The notes under the pieces: model-generated
Databases searched by the model: none
Told to the model about the DNA's origin: nothing
The model's input: only the letters and a program-made list of their open reading frames with translations
Assembly: GCA_041664625.1 (NCBI GenBank)
Contig: JBAYKK010000004.1
Location: 2,343 to 66,342 of the forward strand
Length of the DNA: 64,000 nucleotides
Direction: 5' to 3'
From: Minisyncoccota bacterium
GTDB lineage: Bacteria > Patescibacteriota > Minisyncoccia > Phycocordibacterales > WO2-35-19
Part shown: positions 10,260-54,962 of the stretch, one piece after another
Layout of the letters: each line of letters begins with the position of its first letter
How positions within the stretch are numbered: position 1 is the stretch's first letter
Position numbers and translations under genes: made by a program

Positions 10260-10397
10260 ATTCCTTAAATTAGCTTGTATACCCAAGGAATGACGCTAAT
10301 CTCTATAAGAGTCTAGAGCATCTCGAGTTGGTAAGGTGTTTATACTCGCTCTTCAAAATGCTTTAAAATTGTGGCTTAAAGTGATAGTATTTCAATA

Positions 10398-14579: not shown

Positions 14580-14587
14580 AATATAAA

Positions 14588-25083: not shown

Positions 25084-25255
25084 GCCTTTAATAATGCCAC
25101 AATGTCTCCAATTATCCAGATGTTGGTAACTCCTCTTCGCAACCTTCTATATCTAAGCTAAGATACCCAACGATAGCAAAAAGTGCTATCATAACTTTGA
25201 CAACTTAATAGCAAGAGGAAGCCTAAACCATCCAGTCGATGGCATGGCATCCGAA

Positions 25256-25391
25256 GCAAGAACAACGCACGACACAAGAAAACCCGTTATTAGGGCGTGT
25301 CGTGCGTTACCAGGGGAAACTCTGGTAGAGGTTACCGCAAGGTACCTTCCTAGTAGCGGGCTTTGTTGTTCTTGTTTTAATCGCACGACAA
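25256..25391 (+). promoter_or_regulatory. Structured 5' leader (riboswitch-like) with alternative pairing that can sequester the translation-start region of 25392-26048
   Basis: CGCACGACA occurs at 25267-25275 and again at 25382-25390 (abutting the ATG); complementary GUGUCGUGCG at 25297-25306; enclosing helix CAAGAACAAC/GUUGUUCUUG; internal hairpins with GNRA-type loops (GCAA; GGGAAAC). Confidence 0.3.
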
Positions 25392-26048
25392 ATGGAAAAT
25401 GAATTAAAGTCTTCCGAGGTTAAGACTAAAAATATAACCTTAGGTTCGATTATTGGTTGGATATTTGGAGTGGTAATCGGAATCACTGGAATAATTAATA
25501 TATTCAGTAATCCGCTTTCAGGTTTGTTATTTATATTAGCTACAGTCATAACTCTGCCTCCTGCAAATAAATATTTGAAGGAGAAGATGCACATCTCTCT
25601 TTCAAAAGGAGTAAAGATAGTTTTGGTACTGATACTTCTTGGGGTCGCTGGAAGTCAGGTTGGAGAAAAAGCCAAAACGGAAGCAGTTCAAACTGTCAGT
25701 CAGACAACGGAAAAAGTTGAGGAAGTGGCAGAGCTGCCAAAAATAACAGCAAAGCAGATAGTTGATGACTATAAAGCTAACGAGGTATCTGCTGATGCTA
25801 AGTACAAGGGCAAAGAATTTGAGATTTCTGGCGTAGTGGAAACTATTGGCAAAGATATTATGGATACTCCATATATAGCTCTTGAGAGTTACGAATACGC
25901 TATCATCGACAAAGTGCAGTGTATGTTCAGTAAAGGATCTGAAGCTGAATTGGCTGCAGTTTCCAAGGAGCAGAAGATAACTCTAAAAGGTGAGATATCC
26001 GGCAAGCTTGGAAATATTCTTGTGAAGAGGTGTGAGATAGTGGATTAA
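25392..26048 (+). CDS. Membrane protein of unknown function
   Basis: 218 aa; two N-terminal TM helices, Lys/Glu-rich linker, C-terminal ~100-aa domain. Confidence 0.4.
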   Translation: MENELKSSEVKTKNITLGSIIGWIFGVVIGITGIINIFSNPLSGLLFILATVITLPPANKYLKEKMHISLSKGVKIVLVLILLGVAGSQVGEKAKTEAVQTVSQTTEKVEEVAELPKITAKQIVDDYKANEVSADAKYKGKEFEISGVVETIGKDIMDTPYIALESYEYAIIDKVQCMFSKGSEAELAAVSKEQKITLKGEISGKLGNILVKRCEIVD

Positions 26049-27559
26049 TTCAAGTAATATATCCTTGGCACTACCGGCGGCGCTTCAATGACACTCAGAA
26101 CCATATTGGCAAAAGCATCGGCCAAGTCGTCGTGTTTTTCCACTCCAAAGTGAACGATCTGTTGGATCAACTGCTCCGCTCCTTCTTTTGGAAAAAGTAC
26201 TTTACCGCTTTTGATCATATTGGCTGTTAGCACCAAACGACTTCGCTTGTCTTGATTACCGGGTCGAGTCGTCATCACCTCTCTCACACCCTCGGTTTGC
26301 ATTTGTTGAGGCAGAGCTTTTTGATAGCCGACATCTTCAACAACAAACGTCGGTTCCATGCCACCATGCTCATAACTTTTATCAAACAATTTACACATTT
26401 CAACCGTCTCCGGAAAATTCATTCTTTTGTTTATAATCTTGGGCAGAATATATATCCTGTAATAGTCTTCAAGTTCATAGAGCATAGCAGGTACTATGGC
26501 TGTGTAATCAGCGGCATCGTTTTTTGAAATAGCAGGGTCAACACCAATGCGTACTTCCATGTGAGAAGAATATCCACTTCTGAATTTCATAGGTTTAGGA
26601 ATGGCATCATAGTACTGAATCCATTCCTTATGTATCGCCTGATCTTCCGCCGGAACGATATTTAAGAGATACTCTCTTTGCCACGCAAATTCATTAGCTG
26701 CTTTACTTTTTTCTTCATCAATTGTCGCCATGTCAGGATACTTACCCAACCAAAGTATCTCCCCATTTTGTATCAAAGGATACGACTTGAAGATTCCATT
26801 TATTTTCCCATTATCAATATCTTCTTTAAGACGCATGAGGAGAGAGTCTTCGTGCAAGAGGTTACCGATGATCACGAGTCTTGTGTTGCGATCTCCGGCA
26901 GGAATGACTTCACCAGTTAGCCACTGATACGTTTTATTCCTACCTTCTCTAGTCTTAGTAGAAGCAATATCTTCCAAGTCGTCGCCAATAATAAGGTCTG
27001 GTCGGTGCTGATCGTGACGTAGACCTCTGATACTTTGCTCAGAAGATACTGCCGTGATCCTGGCATTCAGTTTGGAGAAGACCAGAGATGATGAACCCCA
27101 CTCATTGTGTTCTTCTTGGAATGGTCCAAGGTCGTTTTTGAGAAGAGTGTTACTCTCCAATTCTCGACGCAAGTTCATCATATGCTGTTTAGCTTGAGCT
27201 TGGGTTTGGCACAAAATTAGCACGAACTTCTTCTGCTGTTCTCCAAGAATTGCCCAGACAGGATATGAGGTAGTAAAGATGGTCGACTTGGCCGAGCCTC
27301 TAAAGGCAACAACGAAAAGATTCTTCACGTCCTCTCTTTCACTCAAATGGAACAACTCTTTTTGGAATGGCGCTGTCGCATATTTTACGTAGTGAGCGAA
27401 GTAGAAGTGAAAGAAGAGGAAATGGCTATGTTTAGCTATTTCGCTTCTCACCTGTCTATCTGAGAACATTTTATCCGCAAGTTCTGGAGTGAGGCCGCTG
27501 TTAGGTTTGTAATTTGAACTATCATTATTTATTTTCTTCATGATTATTTTGATTAACAT
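26045..27559 (-). CDS. Phage terminase large subunit
   Basis: 504 aa; Walker-A-like 'FRGSAKST'; C-terminal nuclease motif 'IGVDPAISKNDAADYTAIV' and 'DDLADAF' typical of TerL RNaseH-like domain. Confidence 0.7.
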   Translation of the reverse strand: MLIKIIMKKINNDSSNYKPNSGLTPELADKMFSDRQVRSEIAKHSHFLFFHFYFAHYVKYATAPFQKELFHLSEREDVKNLFVVAFRGSAKSTIFTTSYPVWAILGEQQKKFVLILCQTQAQAKQHMMNLRRELESNTLLKNDLGPFQEEHNEWGSSSLVFSKLNARITAVSSEQSIRGLRHDQHRPDLIIGDDLEDIASTKTREGRNKTYQWLTGEVIPAGDRNTRLVIIGNLLHEDSLLMRLKEDIDNGKINGIFKSYPLIQNGEILWLGKYPDMATIDEEKSKAANEFAWQREYLLNIVPAEDQAIHKEWIQYYDAIPKPMKFRSGYSSHMEVRIGVDPAISKNDAADYTAIVPAMLYELEDYYRIYILPKIINKRMNFPETVEMCKLFDKSYEHGGMEPTFVVEDVGYQKALPQQMQTEGVREVMTTRPGNQDKRSRLVLTANMIKSGKVLFPKEGAEQLIQQIVHFGVEKHDDLADAFANMVLSVIEAPPVVPRIYYLN

Positions 27560-27995
27560 TATTAATTTCTTCTAATACTGCAGTCGGCTCCTCTTCTGGA
27601 GGAGATTCCTGTGGATTTTGCGGGGCAAGAGAAGCCAGACGAAGAGCTTCTCTCACTGTTGCTTCTTGCTCTGGAGTCAGAGCGTCTTCTTTATCAAGGT
27701 GAGCCGTAATATCAATGCGATTTTTATAAGTCGCATGATTGTTTCGAAGCCAGAACATAATTCCGGACATGTTGCCTTCCTTAATGGCAGAGATGAGCTG
27801 AGATTCAGCTAGATCATTTACCAGAAGCGAGCCGTCACGCAGAGCCTCATCCGCCTTGTCCACAAACTCCTTGTCCTCCTTTCGCCAGAAGTAATATGTG
27901 GATCGACCAATGCCTAGCTTTTGGCAAGCGGTTTCCACGATGGGAGTTTTCTTTAACTGCTCTAAAAGCAATTCTTTGTTTGCATTAGTTTTCAT
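27525..27995 (-). CDS. HTH protein, putative terminase small subunit
   Basis: 156 aa; HTH 'VETACQKLGIGRSTYYFWRK'; directly upstream of and overlapping TerL; acidic C-terminus. Confidence 0.45.
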   Translation of the reverse strand: MKTNANKELLLEQLKKTPIVETACQKLGIGRSTYYFWRKEDKEFVDKADEALRDGSLLVNDLAESQLISAIKEGNMSGIMFWLRNNHATYKNRIDITAHLDKEDALTPEQEATVREALRLASLAPQNPQESPPEEEPTAVLEEINNVNQNNHEENK

Positions 27996-28765
27996 ATCTT
28001 TTTGGATTTAAAACCTGTTAATTTTTCAAAGCGGTCAATGATTGTTTGGCAGTATTCAGAATCCAACTCGACCATAAAGCACCTTCTCTTCGTCTGTTCG
28101 CAAGCGATTAAATCGGTTCCTGAACCTCCAAAACCGGAATACACCAAGTCTCCAATATCGGTACTATTTAGAATTAGATGCCTCACGAGGCCAACCGGCT
28201 TCATAGTCGGATGCAGACTGCTTTTATTCGGCTTGGGGAAACAGAGTACCGATTTGTCCTTCGACTTCTTGAAGTCATGGGTGCCATACCAACCGAAAGC
28301 AATGAGTTCGTGCATTGGAAGATAATCTTTCCTGCCGATAACCGAGTGATTTTTGACCCAGATGAGGAGTTGAGAGAATGTGATTCCAGCTTCGGCCATA
28401 CCCTCCCTTAGAGCAAAAATCATTTTGTCCGAGTTGAAGATGTAGAAGCTATTTTTTCTTTCGAGATATGGCTTCACCGCTTCTATCCAGTCGTGAGTGA
28501 ATCTCCTATACTCGGCATCGCTCTGGATGTGGTCATTGACGATCACTTTATTTTTCAAAAGTGTTTTGAAATTCTGTTTGCTCTCCGCGACTGCTACGCC
28601 ATATGGCACATCGGTAATGACCGCTTTAATTTTCTCTTTGCCGATAAGTTTCTTTACCAATTCTTTGTCTCTTGCATCACCGCATGCAAGAAAGTGGGAT
28701 CCGAGTTGGAAAATATCGTCAACTTTAATTGAGCTTTTTGGCTTTGTTGCCGCTGATTTTTTCAT
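27992..28765 (-). CDS. DNA methyltransferase (N4/N6, PF01555-like)
   Basis: 257 aa; motif IV-like 'VITDVPYG'; AdoMet motif 'VYSGFGGSGTDLIACE'. Confidence 0.75.
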   Translation of the reverse strand: MKKSAATKPKSSIKVDDIFQLGSHFLACGDARDKELVKKLIGKEKIKAVITDVPYGVAVAESKQNFKTLLKNKVIVNDHIQSDAEYRRFTHDWIEAVKPYLERKNSFYIFNSDKMIFALREGMAEAGITFSQLLIWVKNHSVIGRKDYLPMHELIAFGWYGTHDFKKSKDKSVLCFPKPNKSSLHPTMKPVGLVRHLILNSTDIGDLVYSGFGGSGTDLIACEQTKRRCFMVELDSEYCQTIIDRFEKLTGFKSKKI

Positions 28766-29996
28766 ATCGATTGATTATTACTTGAGTAAATACTGGTTCT
28801 ACTTCTGCAAGGAAAGCTTGACGCTTCAATCCTTCGCAGGCGACCATAAGACTTCCTGATCCAGCGCAGAGATCCAAAATTACGTCTCCAACTTTGCTAC
28901 ACCTTCGGAAGGACTTCTCATACAAACTCGGTGGCTTCATGGTCGGATGTTCGTACTGATTTCCAGGCAATCTTTTGACCAACCATATTTGGAGCATGTC
29001 CAAAACATCGTCTATCAGACGATTACCGCTACCGATTTCTCGATTCATCACTTCGTTCAGATTTTTTACATTCTCAGAAAGGAATGGCTTGCCTTTGGTG
29101 CCGTACATACACAGCTCGACCGTTCGGTTAAAAGCCACCTGAGGAGTGGGGTTGTGCGATCCTTTAATCCACATGCAGAGCCTTTTGAAATTCACTCCTG
29201 ATTCTTTGAAGATGGTCTGGAAATTCCCAACATATTTTTCATCGAGCCAAGTGAAGACATGACAATTGTCCTTGCTAACCGATAGAGCGTTTAGGAGAAT
29301 GCTTTTAACAAAATGTTCGTATTCTGCCTCGGATTTTTTATCATTAGTCTTACCACCATAATTCTGCCTGCCTCCAAGCCCAGCCGAATAGTCGACCCCT
29401 ATGTTGTAAGGAAAATCTATATTTATAAGATCCACCTTTTCTTTACCAAGAAGCTTCTCGATATTTTTTGATTCAGTACTGTCTCCACAAAGAAGTCGGT
29501 GATGTCCAAGCTGAAAAAGATCCCCAGATTTTATAGAGGTCTTTTTTGCTTTTTCTATCTCCTCCTCAACATCTAGCTCGTCATCCTCGATTGAGAGATT
29601 CTCGTCCCAGATGTGGCTCAAATCTTCGTTTTCAAAACCGACATCAAGCAACATGTTTATATCGAAGGATTTAAGGAGATCAAAATCCCAAGCCCCCTGA
29701 TTGGCATTCATGCGGAGCAGAAGCTCACGCTCTTTTTCCTCACTTGGGATATTAAGGTATATGACAGGCACGGTCTCGTATTCAAGCTCTTTCGCCATCT
29801 CTAAGCGAAAGTGGCCAGAGATCAGGCAACCCTTTCTTTTTGGAGATGAATTGACCAGAAGTGGCTCCGTTAAACCGTGCCGTTTTATACTTTCCTTTAG
29901 ATCACTTCTGGCCTTTTCGCTCCAGTATCGCGGATTATTTGGAGATGGTATAATGCAACTAACAGACACATATTCTACTTTCAATTTTTGATTCAT
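28725..29996 (-). CDS. ParB-like nuclease domain fused to DNA methyltransferase (N4/N6)
   Basis: 423 aa; N-terminal ParB/Srx 'IIPSPNNPRYWSEKARSDLKESIKRHGLTEPLLV'; 'NIDFPYNIG' motif IV; 'ILDLCAGSGSLMVACE' AdoMet site. Confidence 0.8.
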   Translation of the reverse strand: MNQKLKVEYVSVSCIIPSPNNPRYWSEKARSDLKESIKRHGLTEPLLVNSSPKRKGCLISGHFRLEMAKELEYETVPVIYLNIPSEEKERELLLRMNANQGAWDFDLLKSFDINMLLDVGFENEDLSHIWDENLSIEDDELDVEEEIEKAKKTSIKSGDLFQLGHHRLLCGDSTESKNIEKLLGKEKVDLINIDFPYNIGVDYSAGLGGRQNYGGKTNDKKSEAEYEHFVKSILLNALSVSKDNCHVFTWLDEKYVGNFQTIFKESGVNFKRLCMWIKGSHNPTPQVAFNRTVELCMYGTKGKPFLSENVKNLNEVMNREIGSGNRLIDDVLDMLQIWLVKRLPGNQYEHPTMKPPSLYEKSFRRCSKVGDVILDLCAGSGSLMVACEGLKRQAFLAEVEPVFTQVIINRYEKISGNKAKKLN

Positions 29997-31853: not shown

Positions 31854-33068
31854 ATGATTGTAGTAACCTTCTTGTTGGTCTTTTTGGGATTTGCAGCGTT
31901 GTTTTCTCTACTCTTTTACTGGGCTGGCGCCGCCATCAAACGGCAGGCCAACAAACCCATCAAACGGTTTTTTGCTCCTGTCCCCCGTCCTGGTAGTTTC
32001 AGTTTTGTAACTAACGAGGGCAGAGTGGAAGACGTCTTCGAAAACGTCGTAGGTTGGAGCTTGGAAACGATCAAGGACAGACGCCTGTTTACGTTAGGTA
32101 AAAATAACAACGCAGGCTTTTTGGAAAAAAATCTTGGAGTGAAGTGGATAGGCCCGTATCCAACCATCAAATCATTCAGTGATTGGGAATGGTCGGAATT
32201 GCAGGAGAGAGAAGTAGAGGAAGACGGAAAGAAAGTTATAAAATACGAAATAACAACTCGTAAAGCAAACGTTTCTGATTTCTTCTTCCAGTTCTCTCAC
32301 CCAATCAGGACAGAAGCCATCGAGATACTCGGCAACACTCAAGTTGCCCTGACCATGCTCATCACTGTTCTCAACTTGGATCCGGAACGGGCTCAGTTCT
32401 TGAATAAAGACCCTGCCATTCTTTTAGCTGGCATGATCCAGTCAACCATCAAGTCGTACATCTGCGACATGAGTTTTGATGAGATAAAGAGGATGACAGG
32501 AACAGCAACCAGAGGACAACAACAAGACCAAGACCAGAAACTCTGGGACAAATTGAAAGCCCTCAATGGTCTCGAGATGGGTGAAAAAGGCAACCCGATG
32601 TATGAAACTGAGGACCCACTTGGGGTCTTTGGTAAACTTGGTAAGTTCATTGTTCGTGGTGAAATTATCCAAGTCGAAGCAGTCGGGGCAGCCGCGGCCG
32701 CAATCGAGGCAGAAAAGATCGCCGAACTCAAAGGTAACGCCGACATCAAAGCGGCTGAAAAAACCGGCGACGCTTTGATAATGAGCGCTAAAAAAAGGAA
32801 GGAGGCTGCAGTGCTCGATGCTGCAGCTCAACGGACTCTGAACGAGCAGAATGCCGGATATTTTGCTTCGCTCCCTGGCGGTGACAGGATGTTTGTGGCT
32901 GCCCAACTGGCAGGCAAAGATTCTGACGTCACCACTTGGGTAGAAGGGGGGAACGACACAAAGGTGACAATACCTTTGCCTATGGCTCCACCCAAACCAA
33001 AGGAACCGGAAGGAGTTCCACCTGCAACAACGACAGAACCCCAAAACAAAAAGCCCAAAAAAGCTTGA
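31854..33068 (+). CDS. Membrane-anchored protein, possibly SPFH/band-7 (flotillin-like), with Ala/Glu-rich coiled-coil and Pro-rich C-terminus
   Basis: 404 aa; N-terminal TM; central region and 'AAAAAIEAEKIAELKGNADIKAAEK' resemble flotillin-type SPFH proteins; assignment tentative. Confidence 0.4.
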   Translation: MIVVTFLLVFLGFAALFSLLFYWAGAAIKRQANKPIKRFFAPVPRPGSFSFVTNEGRVEDVFENVVGWSLETIKDRRLFTLGKNNNAGFLEKNLGVKWIGPYPTIKSFSDWEWSELQEREVEEDGKKVIKYEITTRKANVSDFFFQFSHPIRTEAIEILGNTQVALTMLITVLNLDPERAQFLNKDPAILLAGMIQSTIKSYICDMSFDEIKRMTGTATRGQQQDQDQKLWDKLKALNGLEMGEKGNPMYETEDPLGVFGKLGKFIVRGEIIQVEAVGAAAAAIEAEKIAELKGNADIKAAEKTGDALIMSAKKRKEAAVLDAAAQRTLNEQNAGYFASLPGGDRMFVAAQLAGKDSDVTTWVEGGNDTKVTIPLPMAPPKPKEPEGVPPATTTEPQNKKPKKA

Positions 33069-33181: not shown

Positions 33182-34411
33182 ATGAAGAGAGTAGCAGGTA
33201 TAATCATACTACTTGCGCTAATCGGAGCGTTCGTTTTTTCTCCCTCAATCAACGACTCAATCAAAGAGAGTCAAAAAACTGAGGAAGTTCAAAAATCCGC
33301 TCAAAAAACAAATGGAACGACCACAGACACTCAGACAGAAAAAACCCCTTCGACTTTTGGTTGGGCGTTCTCCTTCTTGGTTTTGGTAGGGATACTGATC
33401 ACGATCATCGTGATGACCTACAGAGACAAGCGCGGAACTGGCGCTAGTGTCCCGTGGGGCGACATTTTGTCGCAACCAGTCTTCATTGCCGTATTGGGGG
33501 TGGTGATACTCAACGCTTTGGCGAGTCTTTTCATCTACCCTACTTGGCGGTGGTTTTGGGATCATCAGACTTTGTTTTGGGGCACAAATATCGCACTTGT
33601 GATTTTTGTGCACTTCACGACGAAGAAAGAGCCCTACGCCAAATTTGTCTCTGGTGGGATTGGCTTGCTCATCCTCATGGGATTTGCGACCACTCTCTAC
33701 AGAGAACACATCGATGTTTGGTGGACAAAAAAGACTCAAAAAAACACCCAGACCAAAAGTCTGGCCTCTAGCTTGACCTACAGGGTGCCGGTGGAGGTGG
33801 CCAAGAAGGTGATTTGTGAATGTGAATCTGGGTGCCGACAGTTTGAGGTCGATAAAGACGGCAAATTTATCACCGACACTAACGGCAATAAGATCCCCTA
33901 CAAAAACCGGGGTATTCCTCAAAAGAATATCCCCCCATCGAGTGCGTTTGGTAAGTACCAGTTTTTGGAGGTTCATCGTGAACCAGCCAAGAAATTGGAT
34001 TGGGATCTAAACACCGAAGAGGGCCAGGAACAATACTTCGAGTACCTGTACGGGAAAGAAGGTTTTGGCCCTTGGGACTTCGACGAAGAGTACGGTGGAG
34101 GCCGGGCCTGCTGGGGGCCAAAGCTCGCGGCGCTGGGGTACGGAGCTCAAGAAAGTCCCGAATTGCTCGGTGTCGTGGATGTCCCGTCCAGCGAATGGAG
34201 CGATGTGGTGGTGAACACCTATCTCTCCAAGATCGGCTGGGGCAGACTCGACACGAGCAAAGGTGGGGTCTGCGAAGTGATGATGGATGGAGACTCCCAA
34301 AAAGTCTTCGATATCAAAGGTAACCACCCAGAGATCACTCCCCGATCGGTGCAGTTCAAATGCACCGAAAAAGGAGCCATAGTTCGAGTTCGGAGAGTTC
34401 CGAACACCTAA
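33182..34411 (+). CDS. Membrane protein with GC-rich C-terminal extracellular domain (possible cell-wall hydrolase-like)
   Basis: 409 aa from ATG at 33182 (ORF finder start 32936 lies upstream of the conserved promoter); 4-5 TM helices; C-terminal Cys/Trp-rich domain; local GC clearly above window average. Confidence 0.4.
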   Translation: MKRVAGIIILLALIGAFVFSPSINDSIKESQKTEEVQKSAQKTNGTTTDTQTEKTPSTFGWAFSFLVLVGILITIIVMTYRDKRGTGASVPWGDILSQPVFIAVLGVVILNALASLFIYPTWRWFWDHQTLFWGTNIALVIFVHFTTKKEPYAKFVSGGIGLLILMGFATTLYREHIDVWWTKKTQKNTQTKSLASSLTYRVPVEVAKKVICECESGCRQFEVDKDGKFITDTNGNKIPYKNRGIPQKNIPPSSAFGKYQFLEVHREPAKKLDWDLNTEEGQEQYFEYLYGKEGFGPWDFDEEYGGGRACWGPKLAALGYGAQESPELLGVVDVPSSEWSDVVVNTYLSKIGWGRLDTSKGGVCEVMMDGDSQKVFDIKGNHPEITPRSVQFKCTEKGAIVRVRRVPNT

Positions 34412-34439
34412 CGGGGGAGCGCAAGCTCCCCTATATTTT

Positions 34440-34778
34440 TTAACAGAAAAATCGGCCGTCACACGATATATCAAAAGTAGCCAAAACTAAACGCAAAATA
34501 CCGTAGACACTAAACATTATGAAAAGACCGATCACTCCCCACTTCACATTGTCTCTGTTTTTGGTCAAGTCACTACTGTCGGCTTTATAAATCATCTCAG
34601 CTATACCATAAAACAAAAAAACTGTAGCAATTGTAAAACCTAAAATAATAAGTGGATTTAAAATGAGAGTAGCTATTTTTCCCAAAAGCTCGGTGATTGA
34701 AAGCATAGATATATTATAACACCCCGTAGTAGATTTTTGCATAGCACTTTGTGTGCAAAACACAATGCAAAAATTCAC
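34440..34778 (-). CDS. Small two-TM protein, VirB2/TrbC-pilin-like topology (paralog 1 of 7)
   Basis: Hydrophobic N-segment, charged loop, conserved C-terminal TM 'KWGVIGLFIMFSVYGILRLV'. Confidence 0.4.
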   Translation of the reverse strand: MNFCIVFCTQSAMQKSTTGCYNISMLSITELLGKIATLILNPLIILGFTIATVFLFYGIAEMIYKADSSDLTKNRDNVKWGVIGLFIMFSVYGILRLVLATFDISCDGRFFC

Positions 34779-34880
34779 TACGGGGTAACAAACTCCCCCA
34801 AAGCAAGCAAACTAAAGTGTGGCACAACTAAACAAAAACCCCGAGAACATCGGGGTTTTTGTTATTCAGATTTAACTAAA

Positions 34881-35219
34881 TTAATTAGGTATAAGAGGAC
34901 TTACTGAAGGCGCAGCCTCTTCGTCGATACCGACAGCTGTACCGATAAATCTCACCAAACCCCAAACTGAAGCCATGACGAATAGAGCCACAACTCCCCA
35001 AATCATAGTTTTCTTAGCAGCATCTTTGTCGTCTTCTTTGCCAAAAATGTATTTGACCAAACCGTAGAAGAAACCAAGAAGGGCCAAAGCAAACATAATC
35101 GGAATGATTTTGTTTATGATATTGCCGATATCAGTGATCAAACCATCAATGTTGCCCAAAGCGGCAAAAGAAGTAAGAGGTAAAGCCAAAGCTAAACCAG
35201 TCCACATTAATTTTTTCAT
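34881..35219 (-). CDS. Small two-TM protein, VirB2/TrbC-pilin-like (paralog 2)
   Basis: Signal peptide; 'MIWGVVALFVMASVWGLVRFI' conserved C-terminal TM. Confidence 0.4.
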   Translation of the reverse strand: MKKLMWTGLALALPLTSFAALGNIDGLITDIGNIINKIIPIMFALALLGFFYGLVKYIFGKEDDKDAAKKTMIWGVVALFVMASVWGLVRFIGTAVGIDEEAAPSVSPLIPN

Positions 35220-35330
35220 CTTTTTTTTGTAATTAATAATTAATAAATTTTAATAATTAAATAAACGACCTATTTTAATTTATTTCATAATACAACTTTT
35301 TACACACAAACTCAATGAAGTAATCCACAG

Positions 35331-35693
35331 CTAAATATTACTACTACCACCACTACCTATAGTTGGTATTGGTATACTAGAGTTATTGGTAATATTAAAT
35401 TCCTCCTGAATAAATCTTACTAAACCCCAAACTGAAGCCATGACGAAGAGAGCAACAACTCCCCAAATCATTATCTGTCTACCCTCAGCTTTGGCTGTAC
35501 CTTCAGACCATATGTATTTGGCCACACCCCAGAAAAAGAAAAACAAAGCCAAAGTAAAAACGAGAGGGATGAGCACATCGGTAACCATAGTTTTTAAATT
35601 TGTAAAAAATGTGCTGGTTTCCCCTAGAGCTTCAGCAGAAGCCAAGACTGGTAAAACTGTTAAGGTTAAAACAAAATAAAACTTTTTTAACAT
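35331..35693 (-). CDS. Small two-TM protein, VirB2/TrbC-pilin-like (paralog 3)
   Basis: Signal peptide; 'IMIWGVVALFVMASVWGLVRFI' identical C-terminal TM to paralog 2. Confidence 0.4.
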   Translation of the reverse strand: MLKKFYFVLTLTVLPVLASAEALGETSTFFTNLKTMVTDVLIPLVFTLALFFFFWGVAKYIWSEGTAKAEGRQIMIWGVVALFVMASVWGLVRFIQEEFNITNNSSIPIPTIGSGGSSNI

Positions 35694-35722
35694 AAATTTT
35701 AAATACTAATAATTATAATTTG

Positions 35723-35995
35723 TTACTGTTTGCTTACACTTCCTATACCTGGTATACCCAGCTCGACTTGTATAAATTTAATTATACCCCAGATAGAAAA
35801 AGCTACAAACAACCCGACGATGCCCCAGACCATGACTTTTTTGCCTTCTTCGGCTGCTTTGTCGCCTGCCGCCCCGCTTCTTATATATTTGGCTACGCCC
35901 CAGAAAAAATAAAACAAACACAAGGCAAAAGCCAAGGGTATTAGCACATTTTTCACTATCCCAAACGCTGCGTCTATTATATCTATAATTCCCAT
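35723..35995 (-). CDS. Small two-TM protein, VirB2/TrbC-pilin-like (paralog 4)
   Basis: 'VMVWGIVGLFVAFSIWGIIKFI' C-terminal TM. Confidence 0.4.
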   Translation of the reverse strand: MGIIDIIDAAFGIVKNVLIPLAFALCLFYFFWGVAKYIRSGAAGDKAAEEGKKVMVWGIVGLFVAFSIWGIIKFIQVELGIPGIGSVSKQ

Positions 35996-36009
35996 ATTTT
36001 ATTTTTTAA

Positions 36010-36312
36010 TTATTTTTTTAAATCTTTTGGTATTTGAGGAATAAGTGGAGTGGTGCCATTTCTAAAACCAAATTCTCCTTGTAAAAAGTAAACAATCCCC
36101 CAAATCGTAACCATGACAAACATCCCTACCACCCCCCAAATAAGCAGATTTTTGCTGTCTTTGATTTCCTTTTCACTACCAGCCGAATTGATATATCTGG
36201 CCACTCCATAGACGAATGCCAAAAATGCCACCGCTCCCAAAAATGGTACGAGTTTGAGCCCGATACTGGTAAATAAATTTATGATACCTGCTAAACCATC
36301 GTTTGGATTCAT
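36010..36312 (-). CDS. Small two-TM protein, VirB2/TrbC-pilin-like (paralog 5)
   Basis: 'LLIWGVVGMFVMVTIWGIVYFL' C-terminal TM. Confidence 0.4.
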   Translation of the reverse strand: MNPNDGLAGIINLFTSIGLKLVPFLGAVAFLAFVYGVARYINSAGSEKEIKDSKNLLIWGVVGMFVMVTIWGIVYFLQGEFGFRNGTTPLIPQIPKDLKK

Positions 36313-36318
36313 TTTGTT

Positions 36319-36738
36319 TTATGTTTTTAATTGATCAATCGTGGTACCAATAGCTTTAGAAATAACCGAAGCCCCGAGAAGTATAGCCGCCCCGACCACT
36401 GCCCACGTCAAAGCATCAGTGGCTTTTTTGATTTGACTAGTATCGCCTCTGGCGGTCACATACATAAATCCGGCATACATGATCATCACGACCGCTACTA
36501 CCCCACCCACCGGCATCAAAATATCGTTTATTATGGTCTCTATCAGGCCTTGGATACTATCAAGCTTGAAAGGATTTTTGATTATTATATTCATAGCCGG
36601 AGGTTTGCCCGCACCACCTTCATCACCACCTCCACCACCCTCTTGACCATTCACAAACAAAGGTGTAATCAAAATAGCTAGCATCAAGAAGCTTACGAAA
36701 TAACTTAAAATATTTTTGGCTTTATGAGATTTAAACAT
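36319..36738 (-). CDS. Small two-TM protein with Gly-rich linker, VirB2/TrbC-pilin-like (paralog 6)
   Basis: 139 aa; signal peptide, GGGGGDEGGAG linker, two hydrophobic helices. Confidence 0.35.
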   Translation of the reverse strand: MFKSHKAKNILSYFVSFLMLAILITPLFVNGQEGGGGGDEGGAGKPPAMNIIIKNPFKLDSIQGLIETIINDILMPVGGVVAVVMIMYAGFMYVTARGDTSQIKKATDALTWAVVGAAILLGASVISKAIGTTIDQLKT

Positions 36739-36758
36739 ATTTATATTATTTATTAATT

Positions 36759-37154
36759 TTATTTGACTCCTTCTACTGATGGGTTGGCCTTGAAATTTTC
36801 CCCACCATTATTACTTCCATCACTTAAAAGACTGTTGGTAATAGTGGTTACGATAATCCAAGCGGCCAAAATAGCCACGAAACCTATAAAAACTTTTTGC
36901 ATCATCGCTTTGGCAGCTGATTTTTGATCCGAAATACCAGTCGTCATATAAGTGAAGCCAGCCCAAGCAAATACTCCGGCTGCCACCGGCACCGATATCA
37001 TTATAATCCAATTTATAATGTTGTTTACCAATTGCATCAGATCATTATACCCACAATTTGGACTACAATTTGGTACAAAAGCTCCTTGAGCAAAAACAAA
37101 GATAGGTAGAATGATTAATGAAAAAACTAAAATATTTTTAATTAAAAACTTCAT
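36759..37154 (-). CDS. Small two-TM protein with Cys pair, VirB2/TrbC-pilin-like (paralog 7)
   Basis: 131 aa; signal peptide; 'CSPNCGY' motif; two hydrophobic helices. Confidence 0.35.
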   Translation of the reverse strand: MKFLIKNILVFSLIILPIFVFAQGAFVPNCSPNCGYNDLMQLVNNIINWIIMISVPVAAGVFAWAGFTYMTTGISDQKSAAKAMMQKVFIGFVAILAAWIIVTTITNSLLSDGSNNGGENFKANPSVEGVK

Positions 37155-38438
37155 TTATTTATTTAACAGAGCAGAGATTTCTCGGCTCGTTTTAAATACC
37201 GCTTCACTGGTCCTAACCCTACCGCTTGTGATTGATTCTATCATGCTCTTAAATATAACATCGGTTTCGATTGGGGATGGGTCAAGCCAAGCTTTACTTT
37301 TGATCGCACTATCATAGAAAACACTTTGATATGCATCTACCGGTTTTTTGTTTAAAAGATCATGTCTGACCGGAGGCAAATTCAAGGTTTTGCTGAAAGC
37401 CGATACTCCCGCCGTCCCCGAAAGGACCGAGACTACAGCAAAGGCAGCCGACGGCACTTTGGAAGATTTGGTGATGGCCAAAGCATTGAAATTAGCAAAA
37501 GAAACATTGACTCCCCCTTCACGCGAAACCGGTACAGTAGTCACATCAAAATTTAAATTAGGATTTTTTAATTGTAGATTTGCTATTTCACTAGCAAAAC
37601 CAAAGTACAAAGCCAAATCTCCACTCAAAAAGTAATTGGTAGAATTTGATAAGGAACGATTCCAAGAATAAGAAGGTTTGGACGGGTTGCCAAATTCGGT
37701 ATAAAAATTGACAGCAGCTTCAGCTGGCACAGTGGGTTGACCGAATGTATCAGCAAAAACACTTTGTATTTTGGTACCGTTCCAAGTAGTGACCGGAGTA
37801 CCCGCCTGCATAGCCAAATTTATGATGATATCTTTGGCGTGAGAGATGTTGGCATACTCACCCAAAGCTACGGCACTTTTTGAAATATTCAAAGAACCAT
37901 CTTTTTTGGATATAACATTGGCTAGATTATAAAATTCATCCCAATATTTTGGTGGTTGCGTCATTTTGGCCTGAGTGAACAAAGCTCGGTTCCAATACAT
38001 GACTAGTGGATCAACAGACACAGGTAAAGCCATGATACCTTCTGGAGTCATATAAATTTCAGAGCCTTCTATAAAAGCATCTTTAAATTGTCTTTGAGTA
38101 AAAACATTGTAAGGAATGACAAATATTTTGTTGCGATGTTTCAAAATCTTTTGAGATGGTAGCATAAAAATATCTGGACCAACTCCCGAAGCTAAACTTT
38201 CAACAAAACTTGAGTCAAATTCGTCTGCAGTTTTTTGAACATACTGCACAGTAAACTCCTTGCTTTGATACAAAGAAGTTTCTTTGACTACGTTATTGAA
38301 ATCATTTGCAGACATGGTACCCCAGATCACCACCGTCGTTGCGTCTTGAGAATTGCCTCTGTAAGCGGAAAAAATAATAACTCCGCCGATCAAAAATAAC
38401 CCAAAAACACCCATCAAAATAATTTGAAATTTATTCAT
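37155..38438 (-). CDS. Extracellular solute-binding protein (ABC transporter SBP, family 1, sugar-type)
   Basis: 427 aa; N-terminal anchor; 'PDIFMLPSQ', 'VDPLVMYWNRALF' family-1 SBP signatures; first gene of the operon containing the seven two-TM proteins. Confidence 0.65.
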   Translation of the reverse strand: MNKFQIILMGVFGLFLIGGVIIFSAYRGNSQDATTVVIWGTMSANDFNNVVKETSLYQSKEFTVQYVQKTADEFDSSFVESLASGVGPDIFMLPSQKILKHRNKIFVIPYNVFTQRQFKDAFIEGSEIYMTPEGIMALPVSVDPLVMYWNRALFTQAKMTQPPKYWDEFYNLANVISKKDGSLNISKSAVALGEYANISHAKDIIINLAMQAGTPVTTWNGTKIQSVFADTFGQPTVPAEAAVNFYTEFGNPSKPSYSWNRSLSNSTNYFLSGDLALYFGFASEIANLQLKNPNLNFDVTTVPVSREGGVNVSFANFNALAITKSSKVPSAAFAVVSVLSGTAGVSAFSKTLNLPPVRHDLLNKKPVDAYQSVFYDSAIKSKAWLDPSPIETDVIFKSMIESITSGRVRTSEAVFKTSREISALLNK

Positions 38439-38493
38439 AGATTTATTATACCCAAACCTTCAAACATCTGCATCTCCAAAAGTGGATGGCAAA

Positions 38494-41004
38494 TTAGAGG
38501 CAGATGAACGAGGCGATGGAGTCACCAGGGTGAAGCTTCATGATGCGGACTCCTTGAGTAGAACGGCCAAGAGAAGGGATTTCAGAAAGACCGAGACGGA
38601 TAACTTGGCTCTTTTTGGACATTGCCACAGCCTCTTCTTCTTCGCCGGTCACCACACTAGAAGCAATGATTTCGCCAGTTTTGGCGGTTACGTTGCTGGT
38701 CTTGATACCAGAACCACCGCGATTTTGAATCTTGTATTCTTTGATTGAGGTCTTTTTGCCGTAGCCATTGGCACCCATAGTAAGCAAGGCCGCATCCTTC
38801 TCGGTCTCTTTGGCAACAGGATGAGCTCCGACTACTCTGTCCCCTTTTTTGAGTTTGATAATCCTGACACCACCAGCGGTACGGCCCATTTCTCGGACGT
38901 CGTTTTCTTTGAATCTGATGGACTGACCTTGAGTAGTGACCACGATACAAGAATCGCCTTTGTTTACTCCAGAAACCGAAACTAATTTGTCACCCTCAGA
39001 AAGTTTGATCGCAATAATGCCACTAGATCTCACGTCTGTGAAGCTCGAAGCTGAAACTTTTTTGCCAGTACCATCTCCGGTCACCATCATGAGAGAAAAA
39101 TCTTTATTGTCTTTCAAATCTTTGGGCCCGCCTGCATCGCGTTGCGAAGCATTGCGGGCAGGCATAGGCAAAATAGAAGTGACGCGTTCACCTTCAGAAA
39201 GAGAAATGAAGTTCATAATAGACTTGCCACGAGTAGCTCGTTTACCTTCTGGCAATTCATACATTTTTATTTGATAAGCTTTGCCTCGATCAGTGAAGAA
39301 CAGCAAATCGGCATGAGTGCTGGCTGTCAAAAAATTGGTCACGAAATCTTCTTCTTTGGTATCCAAATCCACTACTCCCACTCCCCCTCTTTTTTGTTTT
39401 TTGTATTCATCAGGAGAGGTGCGTTTGACGTAACCACCTGAAGTCAAAATCAAAGTATTTTCTTCATCAGCGATCAAATCTTCCATCGACAAGACTTTGA
39501 CTCCACCTTTGACTACTTTGGTACGACGCTCATCACCATATTTTTCGGAAATATCAGAAAGATCTTTTTTGATAATCGAAAGGATTTTTTTAGGATTAGC
39601 TAAAATACTTAGCAATTCGGCTATCAGTTTTTGGATTTCGATTAATTCGTCTTCTATTTTCTTTCTTTCCAAACCGGCCAACTTTTGCAAACGCATTTCC
39701 AAAATAGCGTTGGCTTGCAATTCAGAAAATCTAAAAGTTTTCATGAGGCTGGCTCGAGCATCATCTACATCTTTGGATTTTTTGATGAGTTTAATAATCT
39801 CGTCGATATGATCAAGAGCTTTTTTGAGACCAATCAAGATATGTTCACGAGCCTCTGCTTCACGCAAATCAAATTCGGTCCTTCTCTTTATGACGATTTG
39901 TCGATGTTTTATAAACTCTTCCAAGATACCCTTCATGGAAATAGTCTGGGGTACGCCCCCAACCAAAGCCACGATGTTCAAGTGGAAAGTGTCTTCCAAT
40001 TGAGTATGTTTGTACAAAAAATTCAAAACTTTTTGCGGATAACTGCCATTTTTCAAATCAATCACTACACGTATATCTTTGGTTGATTCATCGCGCAAAC
40101 CTTTGATACCTTCAATTTTTTTCTCTCGTACCAAATTAGCGATGGCCTCAACCAAAGTTTGTTTGTTTACTCGATAAGGTATAGAAGTGATGATTATTTG
40201 CGAAATATTTTTGTCTTCTATTATTTCAGCAACTCCACGGCAAACGATCCCACCACGACCAGTCGTATAAGCATGCAAAATATCTTTGCTATTGAAAATC
40301 ACGCCCCCAAGAGGGAAATCTGGACCTTGCACAAACTGCATCAAATCTTCAGTAGTCGCGTCTTTGTTATCAATGAGGTAGGCGGTAGCGTCAATCACTT
40401 CACGGAGGTTGTGTGGAGGAATGTTGGTAGCCATACCGACAGCAATGCCCAAAGTCCCATTCAACAAAAGCTGTGGAGCGGCGGCCGGCAAAACTGCTGG
40501 TTCCTTTTTGGTAGCGTCATAGTTTGGAACCCAATCTACCGTTTCTTTGTTGATATCACGCAAAAGCTCACTCGTTACTTTACCCATCTTGGCTTCGGTA
40601 TAACGCATAGCGGCAGCTGGGTCGCCATCGACTGAACCAAAGTTTCCTTGGCCGATAATCAGAGGATATCTGATGCTGAATTCTTGGGCCATTTTGACCA
40701 TAGAATCATAAACCGCCACATCACCGTGTGGATGGTAATTTCCTAAAACCTCTCCCACCACAGTAGCTGATTTACGAGTTTTGGCAGCAGCCGAAAGACC
40801 CAAAGTGTGCATGGCATAAAGAATACGGCGATGCACTGGCTTCAAACCATCGCGAACGTCAGGCAAAGCACGATCAGTGATGACCGACATAGCATAATCA
40901 ATGAAAGATTTCTTCATTTCACTGACAATTGAACGAGAAATAACGCTCACATGAGCGCTATTTTCTTCACTATTTGCCTGATTTTTATCTTCCTTTTTAG
41001 CCAT
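38494..41004 (-). CDS. gyrA: DNA gyrase subunit A
   Basis: 836 aa; '[20 protein letters not shown]' active-site region with catalytic Tyr; C-terminal beta-pinwheel repeats. Confidence 0.95.
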
Positions 41005-41056
41005 TTATACCCCTATTATAGCAAAATTAAGCCTTATATACAAGCCAAAAAGTTTA

Positions 41057-48895: not shown

Positions 48896-50197
48896 TTAAG
48901 AATCTTTTTCTATCAACTTCTTCCCTTTCAATACTAGGTTGCTTTTTACACACGAGAGGATTTCTCTCTGCTCGTAGACATTGCCTTCCTTAAGCAGATA
49001 TTTGGCGTAATTTCGAATATCAATGTCTCGCTTTTTGGTGATCACTTCTTTTTCAATCCCCAATACTCCATTTTGAAACCTTGCATACCTTTCAATTTCT
49101 TTGGACATCTTTTCCTTAAGTCCGATTTTATCCATATCCACTTTGTCTATAATTTCTAGAGCTTGCGATACTAAGATTGTCTCGCTAACAGGCTCATTTT
49201 TACAGTCAATGTTTTTGGATTTTGTACACCTATAATATACATGTCGATTCATGCCCCCATCTTTTAACTTTTTCCACTTTTCTTCGGCAGTTATACCCGA
49301 ACCGCATACCCCACAATGAATGATTTTGGTAAAGGCGAATTCTTTACCTTTGTATCCGGTTTTATATGTTTCTTCGTTTAGCTTTTCCTGCGTTTTTTCA
49401 AAAAGTTCTTTGCTAATTATGGGGGTATGTTTCCCGGTATACCAACTCCCGCTTCCTTTTGGATACTCAAATACTCCATAGTAGAAGCTGAGCCGAAGTA
49501 ATCGGTATATGTTTCCTACGGTCAATCCTTTGCCATATCTCGTGGTAAAATGGACATCTTCTTTTAGCCATTTAAATATTCTTCTGCCACTCAATCCTTC
49601 ATTGGCTACTTTTTCAAACATTTGCTTGATTATAGGAGCTCGGCTCGGATCTACGATAATCTCACATTTTCTGTCGGTTCTTTTTTCATTTGAATATCCT
49701 GTAGGTGCTATGCACGGCCAGAGTCCCATCTCAACTCTGGTCCGCAGACCTCTTTTTACATTTTGACTTTTGTTGTCGTTTTCAAGTTTTGCCTGACTAC
49801 CCAAAATCATTAGGAGGAATTTTTCATTCGGATTGTTTGTAAATTTCTGTCCGTAAGTCCGAATTTCAACTAGCACTTTTTGATCCATAAGATCAACTAA
49901 TGCACCTAAGTCCCCGGCATTTCTGCTCAATCTATCCGGTGCCCAAGTGAGTATGCAATTGAAAAGTCCAGATTTAAGGTCGGCTAAAATTGTATTAAAC
50001 ACAGGCCTCTGGCCGTTAGCTTTAGCAGAGTGGCTTTCTTTTCGAACCTCTGTGATATTTAGTCCATCTTTCTCCGCAATCCTCATCATTTCTTTTATCT
50101 GAGAATCTATTGAAAGAGCTTGCATTTCATCTTGCTCGGTACTTTTCCTCGCATAGAGGCAGTACCGTAGAGTCTCTTGTGGTTTGCTATTTTCCAT
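48896..50197 (-). CDS. Large serine recombinase (paralog of 8940-10259)
   Basis: 433 aa; 'YCLYARKSTEQDE...SIDSQ' catalytic motif, recombinase domain, zinc ribbon; conserved upstream motif AGCGTCATTCCTTAAGG. Confidence 0.85.
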   Translation of the reverse strand: MENSKPQETLRYCLYARKSTEQDEMQALSIDSQIKEMMRIAEKDGLNITEVRKESHSAKANGQRPVFNTILADLKSGLFNCILTWAPDRLSRNAGDLGALVDLMDQKVLVEIRTYGQKFTNNPNEKFLLMILGSQAKLENDNKSQNVKRGLRTRVEMGLWPCIAPTGYSNEKRTDRKCEIIVDPSRAPIIKQMFEKVANEGLSGRRIFKWLKEDVHFTTRYGKGLTVGNIYRLLRLSFYYGVFEYPKGSGSWYTGKHTPIISKELFEKTQEKLNEETYKTGYKGKEFAFTKIIHCGVCGSGITAEEKWKKLKDGGMNRHVYYRCTKSKNIDCKNEPVSETILVSQALEIIDKVDMDKIGLKEKMSKEIERYARFQNGVLGIEKEVITKKRDIDIRNYAKYLLKEGNVYEQREILSCVKSNLVLKGKKLIEKDS

Positions 50198-50317: not shown

Positions 50318-51478
50318 ATGGCAAACAAAAATCTTACGAATGCAAAACGGGCAAAAAATGACGAGTTTTATACTCAGTATAGTGATATTCAAAAAGAGAT
50401 TGGAGCGTATTTGGAATACAACCCAGTTGTATTTCGAGATAAGGTGGTATATTGCAATTGTGATGATCCGTTCGAGAGTAATTTTTTTCGCTACTTTGTT
50501 CTCAATTTCAATAAGCTTAACTTGAAACAACTTATCACTACCAGTTATAAACCATCACCGATTGCTAATACAGAACTTGTATTGCAACCATCCCTTCTTC
50601 CTGATTATAAAGATATGGTTGTGAAAAAACTAACAGTACCAAAGGGTAGACCGAAGGTAACTGCTAACAAATTTATTATCAACGAAGTGCGCGACATAGA
50701 CGGCAACGGTGAGTTCAACTTGAAAGACGTTGCTAAGCAGTTAAAAGCAAACAAACATAATGAATGGGCACCTCTTGAAGGTGACGGTGATTTTCGTAGT
50801 GATGAATCTATAAATTTATTAAAACAATCCGACATCGTAGTGACTAATCCACCGTTCAGTTTGTTTCGCGAATATATAAAACAGCTTGTTGAACACAACA
50901 AAAAGTTTTTAATTATCGGTAATATGAATGCTATCACCTATAAAGAAGTGTTCCCATTGCTCAAAGATAATAAAGTTTGGTTGGGCAACAATTACAAAGT
51001 TAATGCTGGTGCCATGTTTTTTGAAATTCCAGAGGCAATTGCTAACTTGGAGCAAGTTCGTGAAATTAAAACAAATGAAAGTGGCAAGAAAGTTTATATT
51101 ACCAGAGTTCAAGGGGTTCGCTGGTTCACCAACCTTGATCATGGTCGCCGTCATCAGCCATTACCTCTTATGACCGAAGCAGAAGTTATAAAATTTGTAA
51201 CAAAAAAACCTTTTGAAAAATATGACAATTATAATGCGATAGATGTATCTCTAGTTAAAAATATTCCGAGTGATTATAGTGGTGTAATGGGAGTGCCGAT
51301 GAGTGTATTTGATAAACATTCCCCTGAACAGTTCGAGATTTTAGGAAGTGATTATAATGTTAAAGAAGGATTGCTTCCAAAATTAGTTAATCCAAAATGG
51401 AAAGGCAAGTTAGATAGAGGATATGTAAATGGCAAAAGATTTTATACTCGAATATTTATTAAACATAATAAGGAATAA
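50318..51478 (+). CDS. N6-adenine DNA methyltransferase, EcoRI-methylase-like family
   Basis: 386 aa; N-terminal '[10 protein letters not shown]...[16 protein letters not shown]' and catalytic 'NPPFS' (motif IV). Confidence 0.55.
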
Positions 51479-51479
51479 C

Positions 51480-54143: not shown

Positions 54144-54153
54144 TAAAAAAGTT

Positions 54154-54954: not shown

Positions 54955-54962
54955 AATATAAA

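Follow-up and report, generated by a model that had tools for sequence, protein, structure and literature searches.

A solute-binding protein gene heads a conserved array of seven VirB2/TrbC-type pilin paralogues in Zambryskibacteria-like Patescibacteria

Introduction

Why should the gene for a solute-binding protein stand at the head of a series of genes for very small membrane proteins? The question is raised by a 64-kb stretch of DNA (contig JBAYKK010000004.1, positions 2,343 to 66,342; "the window" denotes this whole stretch), in which eight minus-strand genes at 34440-38438, downstream of gyrA (38494-41004), encode a solute-binding protein (SBP) and then seven small proteins. The initial annotation of the locus had described an SBP followed by seven consecutive minus-strand genes for small proteins with two transmembrane (TM) segments, and all eight open reading frames (ORFs) are indeed present. 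It had also tentatively assigned the organism to the candidate phyla radiation, in agreement with the relatives of the SBP: homologues 65-80% identical carry the name Candidatus Zambryskibacteria, and the class given to these genomes in a 2025 survey is Paceibacteria (Quinonero-Coronel et al., 2025). Identical DNA is present on a JGI metagenome contig and in an NCBI metagenome-assembled genome that bears the label Candidatus Paceibacterota. By family, the seven small proteins can be firmly assigned to the VirB2/TrbC-type pilins of type IV secretion systems (T4SSs), and they are probably the subunits of a pilus or conduit. The corresponding Patescibacteria T4SS would be encoded elsewhere in the genome, and the SBP would be an accessory at the cell surface, expressed together with the pilins.

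Patescibacteria represent a large share of bacterial diversity and are host-dependent, and the T4SS together with its pilin array is essential in the one species tested. Tandem arrays of 2-11 VirB2-like genes have already been published for Patescibacteria (Wang et al., 2023; Quinonero-Coronel et al., 2025), one of them essential in a cultivated Saccharibacterium. The novelty implied by the initial annotation therefore does not hold; its core interpretation is right, but the type of array had been described before.

Seven paralogous pilins

The eight genes of the locus are as follows, with the pilin paralogues numbered P1 to P7 by order of transcription.

37155-38438, minus strand: SBP, 427 aa, first gene; PF13416 and PF01547
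36759-37154, minus strand: P1, 131 aa, putative signal peptide and two hydrophobic helices; PF18895 at 39.4 bits, hydropathy
36319-36738, minus strand: P2, 139 aa, TrbC/VirB2-like, with putative signal peptide, Gly-rich linker, NPFK motif and helical hairpin; PF18895 at 40.1 bits, PF04956 at 34.3 bits
36010-36312, minus strand: P3, 100 aa, with WG...WG in the second helix and no signal peptide; PF18895 at 30.3 bits, hydropathy, position-3 orthogroup
35723-35995, minus strand: P4, 90 aa, no signal peptide; PF18895 at 33.7 bits, hydropathy, position-4 orthogroup
35331-35693, minus strand: P5, 120 aa, putative signal peptide; PF18895 at 25.6 bits, just under the gathering score, homology to P3-P6 clear
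34881-35219, minus strand: P6, 112 aa, putative signal peptide; PF18895 at 39.8 bits
34440-34706, minus strand: P7, 88 aa, no signal peptide; PF18895 at 27.1 bits, last-position orthogroup

All seven small proteins match the Pfam family PF18895 (T4SS_pilin), with E-values from 1e-5 to 4e-10 and six of them above the gathering score of 26.6 bits, and P2 alone also passes PF04956 (TrbC/VirB2; gathering score 27.9 bits). Each of the seven has a weak match to NF045849, a family of pilin-like proteins from Mycoplasma integrative and conjugative elements (ICEs), the best at 30.9 bits and thus below the cut-off of 40 bits. In the NCBI annotation, P2 is a "pilin" and P6 a "hypothetical protein". Identity to the first paralogue is low in the other six, at 16-31%. 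Given these PF18895 E-values and the position-specific orthologues that each of the seven has in dozens of genomes, their paralogy is far beyond chance.

Hydropathy analysis shows two hydrophobic helices in each of the seven proteins, separated by a Lys/Arg-rich loop of 10-17 residues. An N-terminal signal-like segment ending in an A-x-A-like site precedes them in P1, P2, P5, and P6; P3, P4, and P7 begin directly with the first helix and have no such segment. In the AlphaFold2 model of P2, computed from 42 homologues, a signal helix is joined by a disordered Gly-rich linker to a hairpin of two helices (residues 62-95 and 100-138) with a pLDDT above 90 (range over the helices 83-96). The NPFK motif in front of helix 1 is conserved. 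The VirB2/TrbC-pilin topology proposed in the initial annotation is thus borne out by the family matches, the hydropathy, and the modeled hairpin.

The paralogues fall into three types, namely P1 by itself, the TrbC-like P2, and P3-P6, which have a common second helix (M-x-W-G-V-V-A-L-F-V-M-x-S-x-W-G) and to which P7 is more distantly related. The motif IWGVVALFVMASVWGLVRFI, which had been considered a strongly conserved feature of the second TM segment, is exact in P5 and P6 only; it is similar in P3 and P4, weaker in P7, and absent from P1 and P2. P5 and P6 share 58 of 63 nucleotides in the DNA encoding the second helix, compared with about 45% identity in the remainder of both genes, and the window P5 bears the P6-type signature MASVWGLVRFI in place of the usual P5 signature (MSS...). 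The near-identity of this short stretch in otherwise diverged genes suggests a gene-conversion tract between P5 and P6. The size range of 90-139 aa given previously applies to six of the seven proteins; P7 most likely has 88 aa, starting from the ATG at 34706 as in the public gene call, and the 112-aa form with a GTG start at 34778 is most likely over-extended (orthologues have 84-92 aa).

Other families of small membrane proteins were also considered. The competence-like apparatus suggested by the initial annotation, or a type IV pilus, was rejected, since the N_methyl motif (PF07963) has no match in any of the seven pilins and no G/FTLxE motif is present; they are not of the type IV-pilus or Com type. 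A PHROG scan of the seven proteins gave no match, no holin or immunity family of Pfam or NCBIfam was matched, and no other family was found above threshold.

A membrane-anchored solute-binding protein coupled to the first pilin

The SBP matches PF13416 (E = 2.6e-16, residues 62-370) and PF01547 (E = 1.3e-14, residues 49-343), and its nearest solved relatives are oligosaccharide- and maltose-binding proteins (4r9f, E = 1e-7; 8art; 7eho). Its N-terminus is a hydrophobic helix containing no cysteine, and hence no lipobox, which is why the protein is probably membrane-anchored rather than lipid-modified. In a comparison of 75 species, the TM anchor proved as conserved as the globular domain, more than one would normally expect of a segment that only directs export. 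Carbohydrate SBPs are usually encoded beside their two permeases. In the 64-kb window, no permease and no ABC ATPase other than UvrA was found.

To place the locus among its relatives, the SBP alignment was scanned against one genome per species, which gave 468 relatives, and the best 80 of these 468 were analyzed (SBP 45-77% identical to the window copy). Pilins were sought within 10 kb by an iterated profile that started from the seven window pilins, and recurrent neighbouring families within the same distance were typed with Pfam. Every locus with DNA downstream of the SBP has pilin-like ORFs on the same strand directly after it, and no pilin-like ORF was found elsewhere within 10 kb of the SBP. 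The order of SBP and then pilin array is kept in 75-76 species-level genomes, with 4-8 pilin ORFs where enough downstream DNA is available. Across 76 species, the median distance from SBP to P1 is 1 bp (with -4 to +5 as interquartile range), and in 95% of them it is at most 30 bp, making this the tightest junction of the whole unit. When P2 and P6 were searched against the protein database, all homologues retrieved came from this clade and from the SBP-pilin locus, down to the remotest relatives of P2, and none was beside virB4. No ABC permease was found among the recurrent Pfam-typed neighbours in the 80 relatives. The association with an SBP, flagged as unusual in the initial annotation, is accordingly real and strictly conserved. 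Since the coupling between SBP and P1 is so tight and so universal, a functional link appears more likely than coincidence.

In the more distant relatives (48 of the 80 loci), a class I S-adenosylmethionine (SAM) methyltransferase of 175-188 aa lies between gyrA and the SBP, where it often overlaps the SBP start and begins the transcription unit; it is absent from the window. Examples are the genes at 7095-7661 in locus L086, 2735-3283 in L088, and 9468-9995 in L058.

A fixed set of seven different subunits

The best matches of the window pilins in other genomes are the genes at the same position of the array, and the P1 orthogroup occupies position 1 in all arrays examined. In alignments with 27 further arrays of seven genes, the window pilins score on average 259-318 against the same position and 37-209 against other positions. 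The seven genes are thus ancient position-specific orthogroups, whose duplications predate the clade.

Pilin orthologues have a median identity of 52-65%, compared with 63% for those of the SBP and 84% for those of GyrA; the two genes downstream of the array reach 41% and 31%. The pilins are not hypervariable and have diverged no faster than the SBP. P6 is among the best conserved of the seven (database homologues 62-86% identical). Fixed orthogroups without hypervariability favour non-redundant roles of the pilins, e.g., as major and minor subunits, over antigenic or host-range variation. In a large Paceibacteria clade, the array is a fixed set of seven different subunits, which speaks against interchangeable variants and calls for caution in reading such pilin arrays as antigenic-variation cassettes.

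Transcription signals

The promoter boxes and terminators listed here are consensus matches and RNA folds, and their function is putative.

38445-38450, minus strand: TATAAT, -10 box of a putative promoter, 6 nt upstream of the SBP ATG; read from the sequence
34831-34863, minus strand: intrinsic-terminator-like hairpin with U-run after P6; fold of -29.9 kcal/mol, z -2.66
34713-34721, minus strand: TGTTATAAT, putative -10 box of the extended type, 6 nt upstream of the P7 ATG; read from the sequence
34413-34432, strand not assigned: GC-rich hairpin between convergent genes; terminator scan, fold of -26.2 kcal/mol, z -4.27

The ATG of P1 abuts the stop codon of the SBP, and the intergenic gaps are 0, 20, 6, 14, and 29 bp in order from SBP to P5, followed by gaps of 111 and 174 bp. 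These gaps, together with the hairpin after P6 and the box before P7, divide the unit into SBP-P1-P2-P3-P4-P5-P6, a predicted terminator, and then P7 with its own promoter-like box. The locus is therefore not the single continuous operon of the initial annotation. In the arrays of about 60 relatives, terminator-like hairpins are nearly absent from the first four junctions, where a single one was found (at junction 4). Between P6 and P7 or after the last gene they are recurrent, with at least 10 other seven-gene arrays having one at the P6/P7 junction. A TAnAAT box lies 5-8 nt before the start of the last pilin in 19 of 60 arrays, compared with 0-5% at most other positions. The GC-rich hairpin at 34413-34432 may be the terminator of the plus-strand gene and possibly acts in both directions.

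In approximately 27 close relatives, the usual form of the SBP -10 box is TGTATAAT, at -12/-13 from the SBP ATG. As the TATAAT/TGTATAAT box immediately precedes the ATG in the window and also in the relatives, the sequence suggests that the SBP mRNA is leaderless or near-leaderless. No Shine-Dalgarno-like sequence was found before the pilin genes, which suggests leaderless or Shine-Dalgarno-independent initiation in this organism. TATAAT boxes lie 6-9 nt before the ATG of gyrA (41011-41016 region) as well as of SBP (38445-38450) and P7 (34713-34721).

A further conserved element, CAGTCCAC(T/A)GTTTT, is located at 38480-38495, about 45 nt upstream of the SBP start and just past the gyrA stop codon, and it occurs at the equivalent site in most close relatives (L004-L033). 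Being too distant from the -10 box for a standard -35 element, it may be a regulator site.

Comparison with known pilin arrays and binding proteins

The best-characterized counterpart of the array is found in Southlakia epibionticum, whose essential T4SS cluster includes a series of predicted pilins (Wang et al., 2023). According to the tables of that study, six PF18895 genes (SEML1_0014-0019) lie beside a VirB6-like gene with no SBP, and all six array genes are essential in strain ML1, a cultivated Saccharibacterium. Both arrays consist of tandem small PF18895/PF04956 genes with low identity between paralogues, on the chromosome of an ultrasmall monoderm bacterium and with no relaxase. They differ in their surroundings, since the ML1 array lacks an SBP and is divergent from VirB6-like, VirB4-like, PrgI-like, and lysozyme genes, whereas the window array is led by the SBP and lies between gyrA and a lysozyme-like/SPFH pair, with no T4SS gene found in the 64-kb window or, among the Pfam-typed recurrent neighbours, within 10 kb in the 80 relatives.

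A survey of 3,035 Patescibacteria assemblies reported a distinct VirB4 clade in 2,417 of them and VirB2-like pilins in 1,948 VirB4-positive assemblies, near virB4 in 1,135 and apart from it in about 40% (Quinonero-Coronel et al., 2025). The survey counted 441 arrays of 2-11 pilin genes in 383 assemblies, with about 25% identity between the copies, and defined an array as 2-11 PF04956/PF18895 genes in tandem or one gene apart with low inter-copy identity; the window array, seven consecutive genes with 16-31% identity to the first, is an array in this sense. Zambryskibacteria genomes bearing the SBP-pilin locus belonged to the dataset. The survey mentions no solute-binding protein, ABC, or gyrA in its text and no SBP family in the part of its supplements available to us, and in the papers searched we found no mention of the strict SBP-pilin coupling or of the fixed seven-subunit organization. 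The T4SSs of Patescibacteria are, according to a 2025 review, the only monoderm ones with potential conjugative pili.

Among the classical pilins, Agrobacterium VirB2 (T-pilin), RP4 TrbC, and F TraA share the Pfam family with the window proteins (P2 being above the PF04956 gathering score) and a similar layout, in which a Gly-rich N-terminus, preceded by a long signal peptide (putative in the window proteins) with cleavage before Gln, leads to two hydrophobic helices with a basic loop. Unlike the seven distinct paralogues of the monoderm window organism, three of which lack a signal peptide, they are single-copy proteins encoded inside a diderm T4SS operon with VirB5, VirB7, VirB9, and VirB10. 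The virB2 clusters of Bartonella, Anaplasma, and Rickettsia also comprise several diverged tandem copies; these are thought to be antigenically variable, whereas the window copies are fixed orthogroups that diverge at the pace of the SBP. Mbov_0395 from a Mycoplasma ICE (NF045849) is likewise a small two-helix pilin-like protein of an MPF-FATA-type (mating-pair formation) system in a wall-less monoderm, but it resides on a mobile element with conjugation genes, and we claim no membership of NF045849 for the window proteins, whose matches lie below the cut-off.

Periplasmic or surface binding proteins serve secretion or pilus systems elsewhere. In Agrobacterium (ChvE-VirA), a binding protein senses host sugars for the T4SS; PrgZ of pCF10 captures the mating signal; and in the Sulfolobus bindosome (Bas system), a binding protein is positioned by small type IV-pilin-like proteins. 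ChvE and PrgZ belong to other SBP families, and Bas employs another type of pilin. We know of no case among these three in which the binding protein is the first gene of a VirB2 operon.

A possible role of the SBP-pilin locus

Taken together, we envisage a vertically inherited core-genome operon of a Zambryskibacteria-like Paceibacteria Patescibacterium, in which the conserved -10 promoter immediately before the start codon would drive the SBP and the six tightly packed pilin genes. P1, P2, P5, and P6 would enter the membrane through Sec with cleavage of their signal peptides, and P3, P4, and P7 would insert directly as hairpins, with both termini outside and the positive loop inside. A VirB4-powered, MPF-FATA-derived T4SS would then extract the pilins from the membrane pool and assemble them into a heteromeric pilus or conduit of major and minor subunits for host-cell contact, in parallel to the essential pilin array of S. 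epibionticum. The SBP, presumably made stoichiometrically with the first pilin, would be located at the cell surface with the pilus. There it would most likely bind glycans, acting as receptor or adhesin, or help in assembly; the role of a classical ABC-importer receptor is less likely. The carbohydrate-type SBP and the lysozyme-like neighbour described below point to candidates for what the pilus contacts or needs, e.g., a host glycan ligand or cell-wall remodelling.

The T4SS itself would be encoded outside the window. The initial annotation had reported no VirB4 or VirD4 there, and our Pfam scan of the window, covering all ORFs of at least 100 aa except those nested in or overlapping a longer ORF, likewise gave no recognizable match to VirB4, VirB6, VirD4, or other T4SS parts. 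Secretion machinery is nevertheless reported for the clade: in the part of the published presence/absence table available to us, VirB4 is listed as present, elsewhere in the genome, in five of eight relatives carrying the SBP-pilin locus (Quinonero-Coronel et al., 2025).

Several observations weigh against a T4SS pilus with the SBP as its accessory. T4SS core genes were not found among the recurrent Pfam-typed neighbours of the 80 relatives, and the three of eight relatives listed as VirB4-negative in that part of the table have assemblies of 440 and 510 kb, both small, and of 761 kb; the connection between pilins and VirB4 rests on family membership and the published table. A Foldseek search of the PDB with the P2 model returned no match with E < 1, VirB2 (8exh_A) being fourth at E = 4.9, and a profile of 38 P2 orthologues matched no pilin among the PDB sequences. 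The AlphaFold2 model of the SBP, based on a 17-sequence alignment, has a pLDDT of 50, too poor for inspection of the binding cleft. Moreover, we found no sighting of a pilus on Paceibacteria cells in the literature searched. As for the structural searches, helical hairpins are too simple for fold and profile tests to discriminate; superimposed on VirB2 of the T-pilus (8exh_A), the P2 model gives a TM-score of 0.53 on the target with 25% identity, and hhalign places P2 and Agrobacterium VirB2 in register, albeit weakly (35% identity over 54 columns, E = 0.13).

How closely the SBP is tied to the pilins can be read in two further ways. The SBP might be an integral part of the apparatus, anchored in the membrane, produced 1:1 with P1, and docked on or positioned by the heteromeric T4SS-derived filament; we offer this as a tentative extension that is somewhat doubtful. 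If true, a conjugation-type pilus would have become a host-glycan-recognizing or substrate-capturing organelle specific to the Paceibacteria clade, possibly working without a classical ABC permease. Conversely, the SBP might be an ordinary ABC-importer receptor that shares a promoter with the pilins and has no functional link to them, its permease and ATPase being encoded elsewhere. Its matches to standard SBP families and sugar-binding proteins would suit such a receptor, transporter genes are often scattered in reduced genomes, and the SAM methyltransferase overlapping the SBP start in distant relatives shows that housekeeping genes can join the unit. We still regard this as unlikely, given that the SBP adjoins P1 in 76 of 76 species at a median of 1 bp despite SBP divergence to 45% identity, that no permease was found among the recurrent Pfam-typed neighbours within 10 kb in the 80 species, and that the TM anchor is unusually conserved. 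It also appears improbable that the SBP and the seven hairpins form an envelope assembly independent of any T4SS, either a bindosome-like scaffold or a new SBP-dependent two-helix uptake channel. The unit is never beside T4SS genes, its seven subunits are fixed and non-interchangeable, the SBP anchor is conserved, and some relatives are listed without VirB4 in the part of the table mentioned above; yet all known members of the VirB2 family depend on a VirB4 machine, most relatives in the same part of the table are VirB4-positive and the VirB4-negative assemblies are draft scaffolds, and in another class a similar array adjoins VirB6-like and VirB4-like genes, the array and these genes both being essential.

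The number of pilins, on the other hand, could be understood as a repertoire of interchangeable major pilins used alternately for antigenic or host-range variation, as was proposed for the VirB2 paralogues of Bartonella and Anaplasma and suggested in the literature for Patescibacteria arrays. An identity of merely 16-31% between paralogues might be expected from such a repertoire, but in at least 27 arrays of seven genes every position corresponds to its own conserved orthogroup, and the divergence of the pilins does not exceed that of the SBP. The pilins also differ in architecture, some having a signal-like segment and others none, and six of them are co-transcribed with minimal spacing, so that we consider variation very improbable. 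A lysis cassette of holins, bacteriocin-immunity proteins, or the like, combined with the lysozyme-like gene and a phage remnant, could be imagined because small two-TM proteins lie beside that gene and terminase and methylase genes are found at 26-30 kb. The empty PHROG scan and the lack of Pfam or NCBIfam matches to holins or immunity proteins for the seven proteins, together with the core-genome context beside gyrA, which is shared by relatives without the phage-like segment, effectively refute it. A pilus or conduit of a T4SS encoded elsewhere, accompanied by the SBP, hence remains the reading that we favour.

Neighbouring genes

Two plus-strand genes lie beyond the end of the array.

33182-34411, plus strand: multi-pass membrane protein with C-terminal lysozyme-like domain (ES...GKYQF motif); synteny, profile
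31854-33068, plus strand: SPFH/Band_7-like protein; orthologues match PF01145 (E = 3.7e-12)

The lysozyme-like gene is convergent with the array at a distance of 29 bp and follows directly after it in 58 loci. A profile of 47 syntenic orthologues matched C-type lysozymes in the PDB (2fbd, E = 3.2e-6) and, more weakly, RpfB and EtgA via the ES...G-x-x-Q motif. The protein is a candidate cell-wall-remodelling partner in the role of VirB1. The window copy of the SPFH/Band_7-like gene has no Pfam match; its position beyond the lysozyme-like gene is conserved in relatives. Both genes are possibly associated with the pilin array, as judged by synteny.

The recurrent neighbours of the 80 loci are all housekeeping genes, namely uvrABC, an MBL-fold protein, gyrA, the SAM methyltransferase, S26 signal peptidase, Pth, S1, TsaD, YbeY, RbfA, IF-2, and IS200.

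Other features of the window

A variable segment of about 26 kb (~5500-31800) is absent from the relatives, in which the distance between RbfA/IF-2 and the array is about 6 kb. This segment contains the following features.

four tRNA genes
7664-8260: ThsB-like TIR protein
8940-10286, minus strand: large serine recombinase
10398-13727: superfamily 1 (SF1) helicase-nuclease
17194-20115: subtilase
20146-23766: Ig-domain/peptidoglycan-binding protein (1206 aa)
CAP protein
26045-27559: terminase large subunit
27992-29996: two DNA methylases, one ParB-fused

The segment looks like stacked mobile, defence, and prophage-remnant DNA. A pair of staphylococcal-nuclease-like and YceG/MltG genes occurs twice in the window, at 13779-15577 and 54136-55952, with 88% protein identity between the YceG copies, which would reflect either a real island-linked duplication or strain-mixing in the assembly.

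The recombinase of the variable segment is 59% identical to a second large serine recombinase at 48896-50197 (minus strand), which adjoins tRNA-Ser/tRNA-Glu, an EcoRI-like methylase (50318-51478), and a GmrSD-type endonuclease (51429-52646). This recombinase/restriction island lies at a switch of gene orientation and GC skew, the cumulative GC skew having its minimum near 50 kb together with the strand switch. A position of the array near the replication origin was considered and dropped, as the DnaA boxes are unclustered (27 matches compared with 19.5 expected) and the strand switch is occupied by the recombinase/restriction island.

Finally, the Rfam LOOT RNA motif (RF03000; gathering score 46.4 bits) has two matches on the plus strand, at 16989-17107 (78.8 bits) and 25220-25346 (50.1 bits). 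Both are located just upstream of genes for putatively secreted or surface proteins, the subtilase at 17194-20115 and a tRNA_anti-like OB-fold protein at 25392-26048.

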